Virus record (IMG/VR): IMGVR_UViG_3300027741_000030
Coordinates: 51,656 to 115,655 of that record
Source of the DNA: a virus
Length of the DNA: 64,000 nucleotides
Reading direction: 5' to 3' (one strand)
Below the pieces are notes generated by a model. The model was given only the letters and a program-made list of their open reading frames with translations, was not told where the DNA came from and did no database searches. The translations under genes and the position numbers were made by a program. Each line of letters begins with the position of its first letter. Positions within the stretch are counted from its first letter, which is position 1. Below are positions 51,605 to 62,085 of the stretch, piece after piece.

Positions 51605-51744
51605 AGCTGTATCAGAGTAAAGACTGGCTATATAGAAGATATGTAGTTCAAAAGAAAAATGTGACAGAGATTGCTAAAGAGTGTAATGTGTCTGCTATGA
51701 CTATACAGAGATATTTAGAAAAATTTAATTTGATGAGGAAATAA
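51601..51744 (+). CDS. 47-aa HTH protein (absent from ORF track)
   Basis: MKLYQSKDWLYRRYVVQKKNVTEIAKECNVSAMTIQRYLEKF; coupled at both ends. Confidence 0.7.
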   Translation: MKLYQSKDWLYRRYVVQKKNVTEIAKECNVSAMTIQRYLEKFNLMRK

Positions 51745-57018: not shown

Positions 57019-57092
57019 GCGCCAGTAGCTTAGTTGGTTAAAGCCCCGAACTCATAATTCGGTAATCGTAGGTTCGAGTCCTACCTGCCGCA
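57019..57092 (+). tRNA. tRNA with CAT anticodon (Ile2/lysidine type or elongator Met)
   Basis: Cloverleaf: acceptor GCGCCAG/CTGCCGC (one C-C mismatch), anticodon arm CCGAA-CTCATAA-TTCGG, T arm GTAGG-TTCGAGT-CCTAC. Lacks initiator features. Confidence 0.88.
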
Positions 57093-57093
57093 C

Positions 57094-57165
57094 ACCTCTG
57101 TAGCTCAGCGGAAGAGCAACAGACTTCTAATCTGTTGGTCGCTGGTTCAATTCCAGCCAGGGGTA
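57094..57165 (+). tRNA. tRNA-Arg(TCT)
   Basis: ACCTCTG/CAGGGGT; ACAGA-CTTCTAA-TCTGT; GCTGG-TTCAATT-CCAGC. Confidence 0.93.
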
Positions 57166-57200
57166 CGATACACCGTATCACTTATATATAAGGAGAAAAA

Positions 57201-57737
57201 ATGAAAACCGTAGGAGATAAACTCGGTAATTTTGCCGTTACTGGAGTTAAACCTGGAGCTTTGTCTTATGAAGACAGCTCTTTTGAAACAATTACGCAAG
57301 ATTCTTTTCCAGGCAAATGGAAAATTATTGCGTTTTACCCAAAGGATTTTACCTTTGTTTGCCCAACAGAAATAGTTGCGTATGATGCATTAGTTAATGA
57401 TTTTAATGACAGAGATGCAATTCTTATGACGGGTTCTGTTGATAATGAATTTTGTAAAATTGCATGGAGAAATGCACATGAAGATCTTAAGAAGACAAAC
57501 TCATGGTCATTTGCAGATACAGCACATCAACTTGCAAACGATTTAGGAGTTCATCATCCATCAGGTGTTGCTTATCGTGCAACATTTATTATAGATCCAG
57601 ATAACATTATTCAGCATGTTACATGCAATAACCTTGATGTAGGACGTAATGCTGATGAAGCCTTACGTGTATTGGATGCACTTCAAACAGGAGAGCTATG
57701 TCCATGCAATAGGCCATTAGGAGGAGAAACTCTATGA
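57201..57737 (+). CDS. ahpC: Peroxiredoxin AhpC
   Basis: FYPKDFTFVCPTE, RATFIIDP, GRNADEALRVLDALQTGELCPC. Confidence 0.95.
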   Translation: MKTVGDKLGNFAVTGVKPGALSYEDSSFETITQDSFPGKWKIIAFYPKDFTFVCPTEIVAYDALVNDFNDRDAILMTGSVDNEFCKIAWRNAHEDLKKTNSWSFADTAHQLANDLGVHHPSGVAYRATFIIDPDNIIQHVTCNNLDVGRNADEALRVLDALQTGELCPCNRPLGGETL

Positions 57738-58249
57738 CAAATTGGGTTACTCAACTTCAAGAATCTATTCCAGAATTTGCAAAAGACATTAAGCTTAATT
57801 TAGATGCAGTAATAAATAGATCAGAAATTGATCCAGAATATGCATTACATATTGCAATAGCATCAGCATTTGCTACTGGAAATTCAAAGCTACTAGCTTT
57901 TTTGGTTGCTAATTCAAATGATGAATTGGAAAAAAATGCAGCACTTGGAGCAGGTGCTGTCATGGCTCAAAACAACGTTTGGTATCCATATTCAAGAAAA
58001 TCACATAACGAAGAATTTAGACAAGTTAATGGTCAGCTTAGAATGAATATAATTGGAACCCATGGCGGAACTACAAAAGCTAAATTTGAATCATATGCAT
58101 TAGCAGCATCAATAATTGGTAAATGTGATTATTGTGTTTCTGGGCATTTTGATCTTCTTAAAAATGAAGGTTACACCAATGAACAGTTGCGTGATATTGG
58201 AAGAATTGCAGCAACAATTAATGCATTAGCAAAAATACTTAACGCATAA
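57734..58249 (+). CDS. ahpD: Alkylhydroperoxidase AhpD
   Basis: IPEFAKDIKLNL, MAQNNVWY, LRMNII, FESYALAAS, CDYC...H; coupled to ahpC. Confidence 0.9.
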   Translation: MTNWVTQLQESIPEFAKDIKLNLDAVINRSEIDPEYALHIAIASAFATGNSKLLAFLVANSNDELEKNAALGAGAVMAQNNVWYPYSRKSHNEEFRQVNGQLRMNIIGTHGGTTKAKFESYALAASIIGKCDYCVSGHFDLLKNEGYTNEQLRDIGRIAATINALAKILNA

Positions 58250-58254
58250 AAAAA

Positions 58255-58280
58255 CTCCTTGGCAAGAGAATAAACTGCCA
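58255..58280 (+). ncRNA. Putative H-type pseudoknot motif, copy 1
   Basis: CTC-CT-TGGCA-A-GAG-AATAAAC-TGCCA; covaries with copy 2. Confidence 0.5.
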
Positions 58281-58283
58281 TAC

Positions 58284-58356
58284 GTTCCTATAGCTCAGCT
58301 GGTAGAGCAGCAGACTTTTAATCTGCGGGTCGATGGTTCGATACCATCTGGGGACA
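58284..58356 (+). tRNA. tRNA-Lys(TTT)
   Basis: GTTCCTA/TGGGGAC; GCAGA-CTTTTAA-TCTGC; GATGG-TTCGATA-CCATC. Confidence 0.93.
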
Positions 58357-58376
58357 CATATGATAGAATATAAGTT

Positions 58377-59132
58377 ATGACTAGAAAAATATTAATAATT
58401 GGAGATTCTCATTCGGCTAAACTTTCATTTGGCCTTAATAATTTTTTACAAAAAAATGAATCAAATGACACTAGGCAAGAATCTGATCATCAATACAGAA
58501 CAAAGTATATAGATAAACTTGGAAATAGTGTGTGGATGGAAGACTCTCTTGTAACTTATAAAAATGAATCTTTAAATTTTTATATATCTTGTCACCCAGG
58601 AAGATCTGCTTTACATTTTGATTTTGAAAATTTTGCAAGCGGAACTCAAAAAGAAATTTTAAGCGATTGGAATGAAGAGGGCAAAATAATAATGCCGTGG
58701 TTTGGGTATATAGATATAAGAAATTGGTTGCCGCAAACAGATTTAAAAAATTATGTTAATGTTTCAGGTGTTATCTCTAGATATATTGATAATGCTTTGG
58801 CTAAATTTAACAAAGCTAGGATTATATTTATTGAACCTATGCCTCAATTTATATGTATAGTTACAAGCAAATTTAGATTTTTTCATACAGATCCAGCTAT
58901 AGAGTTTGAAGATAGGCATGAGTTTCATTTAATGTTTGTAGAAGAGTTAAAAAAGCAGTGTTTAGAAAGAGGCCTTGATACCCCAGTAAACATAAGAGAA
59001 ATTTTGGGTACAGACATGATAGAGCCATGGATGCAGCCTAAAAAACCAATTAATTACCTATTAAATGATCATTTATTGCCAGAACATTACACAAAAATTT
59101 TAAAATATATATATGAAAATGTTGGAGTATAG
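58377..59132 (+). CDS. SGNH-like hydrolase/acyltransferase
   Basis: IIGDSH at the N-terminus, NDHL near the C-terminus; extended -10 at 58361. Confidence 0.5.
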   Translation: MTRKILIIGDSHSAKLSFGLNNFLQKNESNDTRQESDHQYRTKYIDKLGNSVWMEDSLVTYKNESLNFYISCHPGRSALHFDFENFASGTQKEILSDWNEEGKIIMPWFGYIDIRNWLPQTDLKNYVNVSGVISRYIDNALAKFNKARIIFIEPMPQFICIVTSKFRFFHTDPAIEFEDRHEFHLMFVEELKKQCLERGLDTPVNIREILGTDMIEPWMQPKKPINYLLNDHLLPEHYTKILKYIYENVGV

Positions 59133-59164
59133 ACCATAAATCACAAAAATGGTATACTGAGATT

Positions 59165-59614
59165 ATGGATACAATAATTAGTTTATTAAAAAAATGGCAA
59201 GCAAATTCAGTTGTGCTTTATTCAACAGCACACGGGTTTCATTGGAACGTAGAGGGACCACTATTTACTCAGTATCACGCATTTTTTGAAAAAATATATA
59301 CAGATATATATGAAACTGTAGATACAATTTCAGAATTTTTAAGAAAATATGATGTACAAGCGCCTTATACTCTTCAAGAATTTATTCAAAATAATACCTA
59401 CGGAGATGTACAGATGGATAGCAATTCTCCAATTGCTATGTCAAAACAACTTTTATCTATGATTGAATACATGATTCAAGATGTTAAGATTTTGTTTGAC
59501 GAAGCAACCTTACAAAAAGAACAAGGATTGGCTAATTTTTTAGCAGATAGACAAGATCAACTTCAGTTCCACGCTTGGTGGTTGAGATCTTCGCTAAAAC
59601 AAACAGTAAACTAA
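59165..59614 (+). CDS. dps: Dps (ferritin-like DNA protection protein)
   Basis: HGFHWNVEGPLFTQYHAFFE...DTISE...WWLRS. Confidence 0.9.
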   Translation: MDTIISLLKKWQANSVVLYSTAHGFHWNVEGPLFTQYHAFFEKIYTDIYETVDTISEFLRKYDVQAPYTLQEFIQNNTYGDVQMDSNSPIAMSKQLLSMIEYMIQDVKILFDEATLQKEQGLANFLADRQDQLQFHAWWLRSSLKQTVN

Positions 59615-60291
59615 TGAAAGATATTGTTGTAGTGACTGGTGCTTCTCGTGGAATTGGTAGAGCAACTTCAATACTACTTGCAGAAAACGGATACCATGTA
59701 ATTGCAATTGCAAGAAATAAAAAAAGTCTTGAAGCAATTCAAAATGATAATATAGAAGTTCATGTTGTAGATATAACAGAAAAAGATCAAGTTTATAATT
59801 TTTGTCAAAAACTTATTGGAAAAAATGTAGTAGCATTAATAAATAATGCAGGTGGAAAAGTTGGTTTTTCTGATAATATATTAGATGATGATATAGAAAA
59901 TTGGTCAAAATCATTTGATTTAAATGTAACATCTGTTGCAAACATAACAAAACAAATTGTTCCAATTATGGAAAATAATGGCGGAGGAAATGTTGTTGTT
60001 GTAACAGCAATGCAAGGTCATTTTGCTTATAAAGGTGGAAGTCTTTATAATGTTGCAAAACATGCAGAGGTGACGCTTACTGAAATTTTAAGATTTCAGC
60101 TATGCAACAAAAATATTAGAGTTACTGAAGTAGTACCTGGGCGTACTGAAAGTTATGATCATAAAGATGGGTCAAAGAACACATTAAGGCCAGAAGATGT
60201 AGCTGAATCAATTAGGTGGTCCATAATGGCACCAAAACATGTTAATATAGAAAAAATATATATATCACATGTTAATCCAGTTAAAAAATAG
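59614..60291 (+). CDS. Short-chain dehydrogenase/reductase
   Basis: TGASRGIG, NNAG, YNVAK; TAATG-coupled to dps. Confidence 0.88.
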   Translation: MKDIVVVTGASRGIGRATSILLAENGYHVIAIARNKKSLEAIQNDNIEVHVVDITEKDQVYNFCQKLIGKNVVALINNAGGKVGFSDNILDDDIENWSKSFDLNVTSVANITKQIVPIMENNGGGNVVVVTAMQGHFAYKGGSLYNVAKHAEVTLTEILRFQLCNKNIRVTEVVPGRTESYDHKDGSKNTLRPEDVAESIRWSIMAPKHVNIEKIYISHVNPVKK

Positions 60292-60301
60292 GAGAAATAA
60301 A

Positions 60302-60826
60302 ATGGCAGAAGAAACAAGACATCCAAATGCAGTAAAAGTTTTAGCAGCAGCAAAAAAGTATGCTGATGAAAAATATGTAGAGGGCCCAAATAACGATACA
60401 ATTTTTGGTAAACGTTATGGAATGAATAATCAACCTTGGTGTGCAATGTTTGTATCAGGTTGTTTTGATGATGCAGGATTAGTTCACCTAGTTGCTGCTT
60501 CAACAAAAAGGGGTTTTGCATCATGTGATGCAGGAGCACAATGGTTTGCTAAGAACAAAAGAATTGTTCCAATTGGGCAAGCACAGCCAGGAGACATCGT
60601 ATTTTTTAACTTTGACAAGAACCCAACAGACACAGAGCATGTTGGAATTGTTTACTCAAATGATGGAAAAAACCTAATTACTTTTGAAGGAAATACTAGC
60701 GGTGATGCAAAAGGATCTCAAGCAAATGGAGACGGTGTTTTTAAAAAGAAGAGAGCTTACAGTCTTGTAATGGCAGTTGCACGTCCAGATTGGGATGCAC
60801 CAGCACCAGTAAAGAAGGCTAAGTAA
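60302..60826 (+). CDS. CHAP-domain peptidoglycan hydrolase (endolysin candidate)
   Basis: PWCAMFVS, PGDIVFF, HVGIV, EGNT; AGGAG SD before 60302. Confidence 0.85.
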   Translation: MAEETRHPNAVKVLAAAKKYADEKYVEGPNNDTIFGKRYGMNNQPWCAMFVSGCFDDAGLVHLVAASTKRGFASCDAGAQWFAKNKRIVPIGQAQPGDIVFFNFDKNPTDTEHVGIVYSNDGKNLITFEGNTSGDAKGSQANGDGVFKKKRAYSLVMAVARPDWDAPAPVKKAK

Positions 60827-60828
60827 TT

Positions 60829-61353
60829 ATGAAAAAGCTGGGACTAACAATAATTGGATTATCAATAGTCCTATTAACATTTCAAGCAAGTGCAGCAACA
60901 CCAGATTGGGTAGTTCAGGATAAAAAAGTTACTCCTGGAGCTATTAATAAAGATGTTACACAAGCAAACATTGCTACAACTGTTTGTAAAGTCGGATGGA
61001 CAAAAACAATTCGTCCAACTGTTACTTATACAAACAAGTTAAAGGATACTCAGCTAGCAACAACATATAAATCATATGTTGCAATTTGGGGCTCAAAACC
61101 ATCTGCATATGAAGAGGATCATTTAATTTCTCTTCAGCTTGGCGGACATCCATCAGACCCTAAAAATCTATGGCCAGAGCCATATGCAGGAATTGGTGCA
61201 AGAAAGAAAGATGTTACCGAGACCGCATTAAAGCGTTTGGTATGTGATGGAACAATGAAATTGGTTGATGCTCAAAAAGCAATTTTAGATTGGCCTACAG
61301 CCTATAAGAAATATGTAAAGCCAACAGATCAGCCAGACACTTCCGATAACTGA
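60829..61353 (+). CDS. Secreted protein with HNH-like motif
   Basis: Signal peptide MKKLGLTIIGLSIVLLTFQASA; YEEDHLISLQLGG...NLWPE. Confidence 0.6.
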   Translation: MKKLGLTIIGLSIVLLTFQASAATPDWVVQDKKVTPGAINKDVTQANIATTVCKVGWTKTIRPTVTYTNKLKDTQLATTYKSYVAIWGSKPSAYEEDHLISLQLGGHPSDPKNLWPEPYAGIGARKKDVTETALKRLVCDGTMKLVDAQKAILDWPTAYKKYVKPTDQPDTSDN

Positions 61354-61360
61354 AAGTAAA

Positions 61361-61427
61361 TGCTATAATATATTAGTACCTGCCTTATGGGGGTACTAAT
61401 TTAACTCGCTTAAAAGGAGCAAAAATG
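61361..61427 (+). promoter_or_regulatory. hsp20 promoter and ROSE-like structured 5' UTR
   Basis: TGCTATAAT (61361); hairpin ATTAGTACC/GGTACTAAT; CTCGCT-TAAA-AGGAG hairpin sequestering the SD. Confidence 0.65.
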
Positions 61428-61841
61428 GTAACAAATTTCGCTATGGATCTTTTTAAAGATCCATTTTTTATTGGTTTCAACCGAGAGTTGGAGCGATTTA
61501 ATAGTTTAAGTAAAGTAAATAATACAGCATTTCCGCCGTATGATTTATTGAAATTAGATGAAGACAACTACCAGCTATCGCTGGCTGTTGCTGGATTCAC
61601 AAGAGAAGATTTAACTGTATCAATTGAGGACGGAAGTCTATGGATTACAGGTGAAATTAAAGAGGTAGTAGATGCCGAAGTTGTTCATAAGGGCATTGCT
61701 GCACGTAAGTTTACAAGAATCTTTGAATTAAGTGAATACATGGAAGTTTCAAATGTAGAGCTAAAAGACGGCATGCTTCATATCCGTGTAGTTAGAAATC
61801 TACCTAAAGAAAAACAACCTAAAATTCTGAAAATTAAATAA
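61425..61841 (+). CDS. Small heat shock protein (Hsp20/IbpA-like)
   Basis: FPPYDL, LAVAGF, HKGIAARKFTRIF, LKDGMLHI. Confidence 0.92.
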   Translation: MVTNFAMDLFKDPFFIGFNRELERFNSLSKVNNTAFPPYDLLKLDEDNYQLSLAVAGFTREDLTVSIEDGSLWITGEIKEVVDAEVVHKGIAARKFTRIFELSEYMEVSNVELKDGMLHIRVVRNLPKEKQPKILKIK

Positions 61842-61849
61842 CAAAATGA

Positions 61850-61875
61850 GACCTGGGTATGTCACAAAACTGCCC
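61850..61875 (+). ncRNA. Putative H-type pseudoknot motif, copy 2
   Basis: GAC-CT-GGGTA-T-GTC-ACAAAAC-TGCCC. Confidence 0.5.
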
Positions 61876-61896: not shown

Positions 61897-62085
61897 ATGC
61901 CAGTATACGAATACAAGTGCTCATATGATGATGCACATCCAACAATGTCAACTCATAGATCAATTATGGATGAAGATCCAGGATACACATGCGTTGAATG
62001 TGATTCGGTAATGACAAGACACTTTACTCCATTTGGTATACAGTTTAAAGGTAATGGTTTTTACAAAACAGATAATGTTAAGTAA
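61897..62085 (+). CDS. FmdB-family zinc-ribbon protein
   Basis: MPVYEYKC...CVEC...FKGNGFYKTD. Confidence 0.85.
   Translation: MPVYEYKCSYDDAHPTMSTHRSIMDEDPGYTCVECDSVMTRHFTPFGIQFKGNGFYKTDNVK

Follow-up and report, generated by a model that had tools for sequence, protein, structure and literature searches.

What are the two 26-nt elements that stand just past the stop codons of two stress genes in a virus genome, and what may they do there? The window analysed here (64,000 nucleotides, positions 51,656 to 115,655 of the IMG/VR virus record IMGVR_UViG_3300027741_000030) is the right-hand 64 kb of one virus contig of 115,655 bp, with a G+C content of 35.6%. A sequence-only reading of this window had proposed two RNA pseudoknots, and their coordinates and sequences (Table 1) are exact as written there. 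This is also the case for its spacings: copy 1 begins 5 nt past the TAA (ending at 58249) of an AhpD-like gene and copy 2 begins 8 nt past the TAA (ending at 61841) of an Hsp20 gene, both gene families being confirmed by Pfam, and only 3 nt separate copy 1 from the transfer RNA (tRNA) gene for lysine, the acceptor stem of this tRNA coming next. The ATG of a zinc-ribbon-like gene lies 21 nt past copy 2 and is preceded by the Shine-Dalgarno sequence AAAGGA at 61885-90. A terminator check of both sites detects no intrinsic-terminator-like site at either copy, in agreement with the earlier remark that no normal terminator is seen. The comparative evidence described below indicates that the 26-mers are H-type RNA pseudoknots, supported as far as comparative data allow, which are transcribed within polycistronic phage messages.

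The pairing is tested by the variation of the motif across phage contigs. IMG/VR was searched with the pattern CCTGRGYAWGNNNNNAAACTGCY, which leaves positions 1, 2, 13, 14 and 26 free and fixes C3, G12 and AAACUGC; this sequence-only pattern matches at least 120 contigs, many of them with two to four copies, and 115/116 unique 26-mers among the matches listed are fully paired (8 pairs). Of the pairs of stem 1 whose positions the search left free, 1-14 is formed in 116/116 variants with six pair types (GC 51, CG 26, AU 23, UA 14, GU 1, UG 1), and 2-13 also in 116/116, with four (AU 54, UA 54, CG 6, GC 2). The closing pair C3-G12 is present in 116/116 variants, both letters being fixed by the pattern, and an additional fourth pair, 0-15, is present in 77%. 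In stem 2, pair 7-25 is AU in 100 variants, GC in 15 and GU in one, and A-C is never found (0 of 116). When the partners are slid along the 116-variant alignment, the pairing drops from 91% to 27-41%. Pair 9-23 is U-G in 34/116 variants, which would be a mismatch if read on the other strand; because such pairs are valid on one strand only, the fold is a property of the sense-strand RNA. Beyond the motif borders conservation is lost, although position 27 is often A and an A-rich stretch lies upstream.

The knot is found at the same places in close relatives when considering the loci of three anchor proteins (80 close relatives each for the DUF932, AhpD-like and Hsp20 genes), and all 151 covariance model (CM) matches in the 80 DUF932-related loci are on the gene strand. 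Between these relatives stem 1 is exchanged from GAC/GUC into AAC/GUU or GUC/GAC and from AUC/GAU into UUC/GAA, and stem 2 from GAGCA/UGCUC into AGGCA/UGCCU and from UGGCA/UGCCA into UGGUA/UACCA; at pair 8-24 a single change is seen, once (GAACA/UGUUC). Selecting the sequences downstream of the three genes by the anchors CCT, G12 and AAAC only gives 35 unique variants, in which 98.9% of the cells are paired, compared with about 30% for slid partners, and in which pairs 6-26 (GC/GU/UA/AU) and 9-23 (CG/UG/UA) covary; together with pair 7-25 of the 116-variant alignment, stem 2 covaries at three pairs. The unusual U6-A26 pair of window copy 1 is common to its orthologues after the AhpD-like gene. 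The proposal of a pseudoknot with compensatory changes in both stems is therefore strongly borne out by hundreds of independent copies, the 116 variants and the orthologous sites among them. Its CU loop and AAAC linker, which had been called invariant, are near-invariant where the search left them unfixed, the exceptions being one AAAAA and an AAAAG-GCUC variant (15/79 loci). The latter occurs at the Hsp20 site, which has the strict-descriptor knot in 64/79 relatives and the variant knot in the remaining 15; there AAAC-UGCUC is changed into AAAG-GCUC and the second stem has 4 bp. In these 15 Hsp20 loci (L418, L434, L450, L479 and 11 others) an insert of ~45 nt (CATTCTGTACGTCGGTGGACATCGGGATATGTAGGAAGCGTACAG) also precedes the variant knot, 3-90 nt past the Hsp20 stop.

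The resulting anatomy is a stem 1 of 3-4 bp, closed by C-G, a CU loop 1, a stem 2 of 5 bp with one A or U at the junction, and a loop 3 in which AAAC comes after three free bases. Minor- and major-groove triples made by the invariant loop bases probably hold the two stems together, by analogy with the luteovirus and coremin knots that are compared below.

The genome itself has four copies. The sequence-only expression ...CT............AAACTGC.. was run over both strands of the 115,655-bp genome and matches exactly four times, each time with 8/8 stem pairs; the bare structural descriptor (3 bp + 5 bp, fixed loop lengths) is common, with 118 matches on the two genome strands. Copies 3 and 4 are located outside the window, in the left half of the genome. 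All four copies are on the sense strand, 5-10 nt past a TAA stop, and two of them are immediately 5' of a tRNA, the gap between copy 4 and tRNA-Asp being 12 nt. Their CM scores are 27.6-45.3 bits and the next-best genome match reaches 12.2 bits; since the training alignment of the model included the four copies, it is this separation in bit score, not the E-values, that carries weight. Chance similarity is ruled out by the four fully paired matches (4/4) together with the 115/116 paired database variants. A partial CM match that might have been a fifth, diverged copy (L002 2717-2728) is inside a coding sequence and has no 3' half.

Table 1. Positions of the four pseudoknot copies, of the structural parts of the two window copies and of the genes next to these two copies (window numbering unless stated otherwise)
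Feature	Position	Strand	Sequence or parts	Evidence or context
Pseudoknot copy 1	58255..58280	+	CTC-CT-TGGCA-A-GAG-AATAAAC-TGCCA	8/8 pairs; CM 27.6 bits
Copy 1, stem 1 (S1)	58255-57 with 58266-68
Copy 1, loop 1 (L1)	58258-59		CU
Copy 1, stem 2 (S2)	58260-64 with 58276-80
Copy 1, junction	58265		A
Copy 1, loop 3 (L3)	58269-75		AAUAAAC
Pseudoknot copy 2	61850..61875	+	GAC-CT-GGGTA-T-GTC-ACAAAAC-TGCCC	8/8 pairs; CM 38.2 bits
Copy 2, S1	61850-52 with 61861-63
Copy 2, L1	61853-54		CU
Copy 2, S2	61855-59 with 61871-75		one U-G pair
Copy 2, junction	61860		U
Copy 2, L3	61864-70		ACAAAAC
Pseudoknot copy 3	genome 25835-25810 (L001 11836-11811)	-	GAC-CU-GAGUA-U-GUC-GCCAAAC-UGCUC	10 nt past TAA of 138-aa open reading frame (ORF)
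Pseudoknot copy 4	genome 24315-24290 (L001 10316-10291)	-	AUC-CU-GAGCA-A-GAU-UUAAAAC-UGCUC	9 nt past DUF932 gene TAA
AhpD-like (carboxymuconolactone decarboxylase family, CMD) gene	57734..58249	+		ORF; Pfam PF02627, E 4e-11
tRNA-Lys(UUU)	58284..58357	+		ARAGORN; Rfam tRNA 66.2 bits
Hsp20 small heat-shock protein gene	61425..61841	+		ORF; Pfam PF00011, E 8e-17
62-aa zinc-ribbon-like gene	61897..62085	+		ORF; weak Zn_ribbon_8 match

Two DNA-level interpretations were also considered for the 26-mers. A palindrome bound by a dimeric protein is ruled out by the interleaved arrangement of the inverted repeats and by the G-U pairs, which are formed on one strand. Sigma-70-type promoters can be read in both window copies (TTGGCA-16-TACGTT and TGGGTA-18-TATAAT) but are rejected: in copy 1 the -10 would run into the tRNA, the TATAAT after copy 2 is not kept in relatives, stem 1 covaries, and interleaved pairs with G-U are unexpected for a DNA site.

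The placement of the knot, analysed for 146 non-redundant copies, is strict with respect to the preceding stop codon. Gaps between stop and knot set in abruptly at 6 nt, or at 5 nt in the AhpD lineage, and 73/146 copies have a gap of 6-10 nt. About the first 5-7 nt past a stop codon are covered when that codon is in the A site of a ribosome, and as this footprint matches the minimum gap of 5-6 nt, the start of the knot corresponds to the point where the mRNA exits from the terminating ribosome. The knot ends just outside the next initiation site or tRNA: the next start codon is 20-39 nt past the knot in 65/146 copies, and at the Hsp20 site this distance is 19-22 nt in relatives, with a free Shine-Dalgarno sequence 8-10 nt past the knot end. 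A co-oriented tRNA follows 3-14 nt downstream in 20/146 copies (14%), with six identities (Asp, Arg, Ser, Ala, Gly and Lys), and a tRNA just upstream of the knot is found in 0/146 copies. When the same 80-aa ORF criterion is used on both sides, a co-oriented ORF is present upstream in 95/113 copies and downstream in 53/113. In the 34 nt past the knot there is no more structure than in shuffled sequences (mean z -0.23), and 23% of the copies have a hairpin nearby. The preceding stop is TAA in 74%, and a second in-frame stop follows the first in 14/87 copies. Past the stop, the reading frame of the gene stays open for a median of only 7 codons, which excludes read-through products; this lack of in-frame extension ORFs, the tandem stops and the high proportion of TAA lead to the rejection of a recoding signal, as judged from the in-frame extensions.

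At several orthologous sites the knot is interchanged with a hairpin, and the two are positionally equivalent there. At the site between the DUF932 gene and tRNA-Asp, 7/80 close relatives have an 11-bp GC hairpin with a T-run instead of the knot; this hairpin is shaped like a classic terminator, and about 10 nt separate its end from the same tRNA-Asp. At the 138-aa-gene site a small hairpin is always present directly 3' of the knot, its stem covarying (UCCC/GGGA, ACACC/GGUGU, ACAC/GUGU) and its loop usually being UUCG, and in 4/80 relatives both knot and hairpin have given way to a GC hairpin of 12 bp with the extended -10 sequence TGCTATAAT after it. The third case is seen when comparing two cultured mycobacteriophages: in Labelle the knot is 7 nt past gene 85, and in Patience a 15-bp hairpin is at the same place, after gene 86, the homologue, which encodes a protein said to be 'abundant in lytic growth' (PMC4324244). 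Labelle also has about 185 nt between the knot and tRNA-Gln (L245, 629-800) without a counterpart in Patience; this stretch includes an unannotated ATG-initiated frame and looks like a knot-plus-mini-gene insertion.

As judged from the DUF932 protein, the nearest cultured relatives of the virus are the Streptomyces BE-cluster phages (52% identity), which suggests an actinobacterial host. The nearest of these, Streptomyces phage Jay2Jay, has no strong motif match, and neither have Syn9, S-PM2, P-SSM2, T4 and SPO1; single strong copies are found in Mycobacterium phage Labelle, Cyanophage S-RIM4 and Paracoccus phage ParKuw1. In bacterial and archaeal contigs (one genome per species), 89/121 pattern matches are fully paired, and these are from many phyla. 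In metagenome-assembled genomes of Planctomycetota, Omnitrophota, Desulfobacterales and Aminicenantes (loci L129-L243, e.g. L164 4604-4681, minus strand), a conserved micro-ORF, about 18-25 aa long and reading M(K/T)RFMIPR(V/T)AHCxxGC or MDITIKYMLRPVAHCKEGC, ends directly before the knot or has a stop codon that overlaps it. That this micro-ORF is coding is indicated by synonymous changes at third positions; its peptide has no family match. In L164 it is flanked on one side by a 344-aa hydrophobic ORF, read by eye as permease-like, and on the other side by an Rrf2-family regulator (weak NCBIfam match) and a 429-aa ORF that appears Hcp-like by eye, from its N-terminal Cys motif.

Does the knot belong to a known RNA family? 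The Rfam 15 gathering scan of the window and scans at E up to 10 around both copies give only tRNAs and noise, as expected from the earlier statement that no known family can be assigned, and the at least 120 IMG/VR contigs add further covarying instances of the motif. The searchable papers on motif strings, on coremin and phages, on exoribonuclease-resistant RNA (xrRNA) and bacterial RNases, and from phage structured-RNA surveys do not describe it, and no mention of a coremin-like motif in phages or bacteria is found in the searchable literature. Coremin is nevertheless the element with which the core is best compared. It has the sequence GUC-CGAA-GAC-GUUAAACUAC followed by a second hairpin and is known from many eukaryotic RNA viruses, Beet necrotic yellow vein virus and the cucumoviruses among them (PMC6546385, PMC10520033). 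It needs a C-G loop-closing pair (PMC6546385), and also a YGAD or YGNNAD loop, an intact AAA-CU and the second hairpin, the first spacer bases being tolerant (PMC6546385, PMC10520033, PMC10321173). Coremin stalls Xrn1 and scanning ribosomes, resists elongating ones and drives -1 frameshifting, including in E. coli (PMC6546385, PMC10520033, PMC10321173), and in Watson-Crick coremin, both engineered and natural, the second stem has 3 bp (PMC10321173).

The phage knot and coremin share a 3-bp 5' hairpin closed by C-G, a loop that starts with a pyrimidine and ends with A-D (A-(A/U) in the phage), and three tolerant bases followed by AAACU with the same spacing; AAACU is present in all four genome copies, and although the database pattern fixed AAACUGC, AAACU is also kept at orthologous sites that were chosen without regard to the spacer, apart from the AAAAG and AAAAA variants. 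Many bacterial copies read GUC...GAC-GUUAAAC-U, which is the same as coremin outside the loop. Both are located in untranslated or intergenic RNA, and a small UUCG-loop hairpin follows next, in this phage lineage at the 138-aa-gene site only. The differences concern the loop, which has 8 nt (CUGRGYAW) in the phage knot compared with 4 nt (YGAD) or 6 nt (YGNNAD) in coremin; the second stem, in which the phage loop forms five Watson-Crick pairs with UGCYC whereas coremin makes a non-canonical contact with CUAC; the second hairpin, needed for Xrn1 resistance and absent at most phage copies; and the carriers, which are DNA phages and bacteria, without Xrn1, rather than eukaryotic RNA viruses (those tested are the 115.7-kb tailed-phage genome, IMG/VR phage contigs, three cultured phages and bacterial chromosomes). 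These four differences set the phage motif apart from membership of coremin.

Three other systems share part of this geometry. In xrRNA-WCC (frameshift screen; Sanxia picorna-like virus 5; PMC10321173) the loop also pairs antiparallel with the 3' spacer, giving an H-type pseudoknot, often with an A after stem 2; its loop has 4 nt and its second stem 3 bp, compared with 8 nt, 5 bp and a 1-nt junction in the phage knot, and it needs a second hairpin to stall Xrn1. The -1 frameshift knots of luteoviruses (beet western yellows virus and potato leafroll virus) and the read-through knot of murine leukaemia virus are, like the phage knot, H-type, of 26-28 nt, with a 2-nt loop 1 and an A-rich loop ending in AAAC, at 5-9 nt from the A-site codon; in contrast to these, the phage motif has no slippery heptamer and comes after a stop codon rather than inside an ORF. 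Stem-loops that stabilise the upstream mRNA are well known in bacteria, as repetitive extragenic palindromic (REP) elements, the intercistronic hairpins of puf and malEFG, and terminator hairpins. With these the phage motif shares its site just past a stop codon in operons and its interchange with GC hairpins; it differs in being a pseudoknot with invariant loop bases, which is much shorter and compatible with AT-rich sequence.

The function that we favour, with about an even chance of being right, is that of a cistron-boundary roadblock and stabiliser, a reading suggested by the placement of the knot and by analogy with the systems above. The knot is small and would be mechanically tough, and it would be folded between the terminating and the initiating ribosomes; because it starts past the stop-codon ribosome and ends before the next ribosome-binding site or tRNA, it would stay folded while its neighbours are in use. 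It would then stop processive enzymes, chiefly exoribonucleases that enter after cuts by endonucleases or RNase P, and possibly also sliding ribosomes. Transcription would not be terminated by it; rather, the upstream message would gain a fixed, stable end and the downstream message perhaps a fixed, stable start. The comparative data show the fold with its conservation, its placement and its interchange with stem-loops; which enzyme is blocked, and from which direction, is inferred, as are the tertiary contacts. Protection of the upstream 3' end is favoured by the tie to the upstream ORF, the one-sided relation with tRNAs, the swaps with terminator hairpins and the association with genes of abundant proteins; a 5'-side barrier, shielding the downstream RNA, is favoured by the precedent of coremin and by the copies in which knot and hairpin are combined, and both may hold. 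Of the candidate functions listed in the sequence-only reading, 3'-end protection or boundary marking best fits the context, and a ligand-binding riboswitch is unlikely.

Several observations weigh against a roadblock of this kind. Coremin blocks from the 5' side and the phage context ties the knot more to the upstream gene, which suggests a 3'-side barrier, so that the two do not clearly agree on a direction; and the second hairpin, which coremin requires for resistance to Xrn1, is missing from most copies. The hairpin replacements are mosaic module swaps, whose equivalence is positional, functional equivalence being unproven. In some relatives the AhpD-like gene is joined straight to the tRNA without any structure, which shows that the knot is not required at such junctions.

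It is possible, although unlikely in our judgement, that the knot is a prokaryotic xrRNA, a 26-nt fold that would stop RNase J-type or other processive nucleases by means of the core that it has in common with coremin, the xrRNA of RNA viruses of plants and fungi. A similarly low probability is given to its strict form, in which the knot would block 5'-to-3' decay (by RNase J, or by RNase E scanning that depends on the 5' end) and protect the downstream cistron or tRNA precursor. The equality of the core with that of coremin (C-G closing pair, three tolerant nucleotides, AAACU) is consistent with this, as is the 138-aa-gene site, which has the full two-hairpin coremin layout with the covarying UUCG hairpin and where the replacement module includes a promoter, another route to a protected 5' end. 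At the Hsp20 site, moreover, the knot ends just 8-10 nt before the Shine-Dalgarno sequence, and the nearest cultured relatives by DUF932 are phages of Actinobacteria, a phylum that has RNase J. However, most copies have no second hairpin, 14% of them precede a tRNA whose 5' leader is removed by RNase P while none follow a tRNA, the link with the upstream ORF is stronger than that with the downstream one, and one orthologous site has a terminator-like hairpin in place of the knot. This replacement points to functions at RNA ends and also argues against a ribosome insulator, which is a distinctly less probable explanation; such an insulator would halt post-termination sliding and re-initiation, or ribosomes that missed the stop, thereby uncoupling the cistrons and shielding the tRNA precursors. 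Its geometry would be like that of the frameshift and read-through knots, the gap of 5-6 nt corresponding to the mRNA entry site of the stop-codon ribosome; coremin blocks scanning and resists elongating ribosomes, and the preference for TAA (74%) and the second in-frame stops (14/87) would fit. The spacing is, however, equally explained by staying clear of the ribosome, and bacterial ribosomes are not known to slide in these contexts.

The swap at the DUF932/tRNA-Asp site (7/80 relatives) is also in agreement with an unconventional intrinsic terminator, in which the knot would replace the GC hairpin and the following U-run would release RNA polymerase; the copy at this site is flanked by A7 and U6 runs, as in an L-shaped terminator, and a T-run of at least 4 within 14 nt downstream is present in 23-25% of the copies, compared with 6% in the control region upstream of the knot. 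We nevertheless consider this explanation very unlikely, when taking into account that three quarters of the copies, including both window copies, have no U-run, that its offset is spread over 0-7 nt where it is present, and that many copies are followed so closely by a tRNA (after 3-14 nt) or a start codon (after about 20 nt) that a promoter would not fit in between. The least probable explanation is a binding site, either for a specific protein of the phage or the host or for a small molecule, in which case the knot would be a very small riboswitch resembling preQ1-I. The invariant loop nucleotides (C4, U5 and A18-C21) and the topology, which is that of the preQ1-I and SAM-II classes, would be in line with it, as would the bacterial subset that follows the Cys/His micro-ORF upstream of the Rrf2-family regulator and the 429-aa ORF judged Hcp-like by eye. 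Against it, up to four copies per genome come after unrelated genes (AhpD-like, Hsp20, DUF932) without a consistent gene association, no copy sequesters a Shine-Dalgarno sequence, Rfam gives no riboswitch match for the window motifs at E up to 10, and the spread over many phyla argues against a phage-specific protein.

The surroundings of the knots have further features. Upstream of copy 1, tRNA-Met(CAU) and tRNA-Arg(UCU) (window 57019-57166) are contiguous without a spacer (57093/57094), and an AhpC-like gene starts 34 nt downstream of them. An oxidative-stress gene set covers window 57201-60291, with an AhpC/TSA peroxiredoxin and the AhpD-like gene, both confirmed by Pfam, and a Dps-like ferritin and an SDR protein, both judged by eye. 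The Hsp20 gene has its own extended -10 sequence in window 61354-61424 (TGCTATAAT, about 61363-71), which occurs a second time at about window 62103. It is followed, directly before the Shine-Dalgarno sequence, by an 8-bp hairpin in the 5' untranslated region (UUAGUACC...GGUACUAA), a candidate 5' stabiliser or RNA thermometer of the heat-shock gene. Another repeated promoter-like element, AATGTCAGTG(G/C)C ... TGT(T/AC)A(A)TACT, is present upstream of early-region genes in the left half of the genome (L001 about 10135, 11390 and 12300, minus strand) and after the AhpD-like gene in relatives (e.g. L349, L366); it is probably the phage early promoter consensus.

The motif is thus common: one narrow pattern finds it in at least 120 IMG/VR contigs, and it also occurs in many bacterial phyla and in three cultured phages. 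Yet Rfam 15 and the searchable literature do not contain it; neither its wide family nor the likeness of its core to coremin is visible from the two window copies alone. The annotation of phage intergenic regions would improve by including it. The knot is a 26-nt, AT-compatible part for tuning operon expression and, with its rich natural covariation, a compact pseudoknot for structural work, while the knot of Labelle and the hairpin of Patience at the same spot form a natural pair for comparison. If the proposed function holds, it would be among the smallest natural RNA devices that set message boundaries and half-lives in bacteria and phages. If the knot is indeed resistant to exoribonucleases, it would be the first sign in prokaryotes of the xrRNA principle known from eukaryotic RNA viruses, and one minimal design of an RNA roadblock would then be common to DNA phages, bacteria and eukaryotic RNA viruses.

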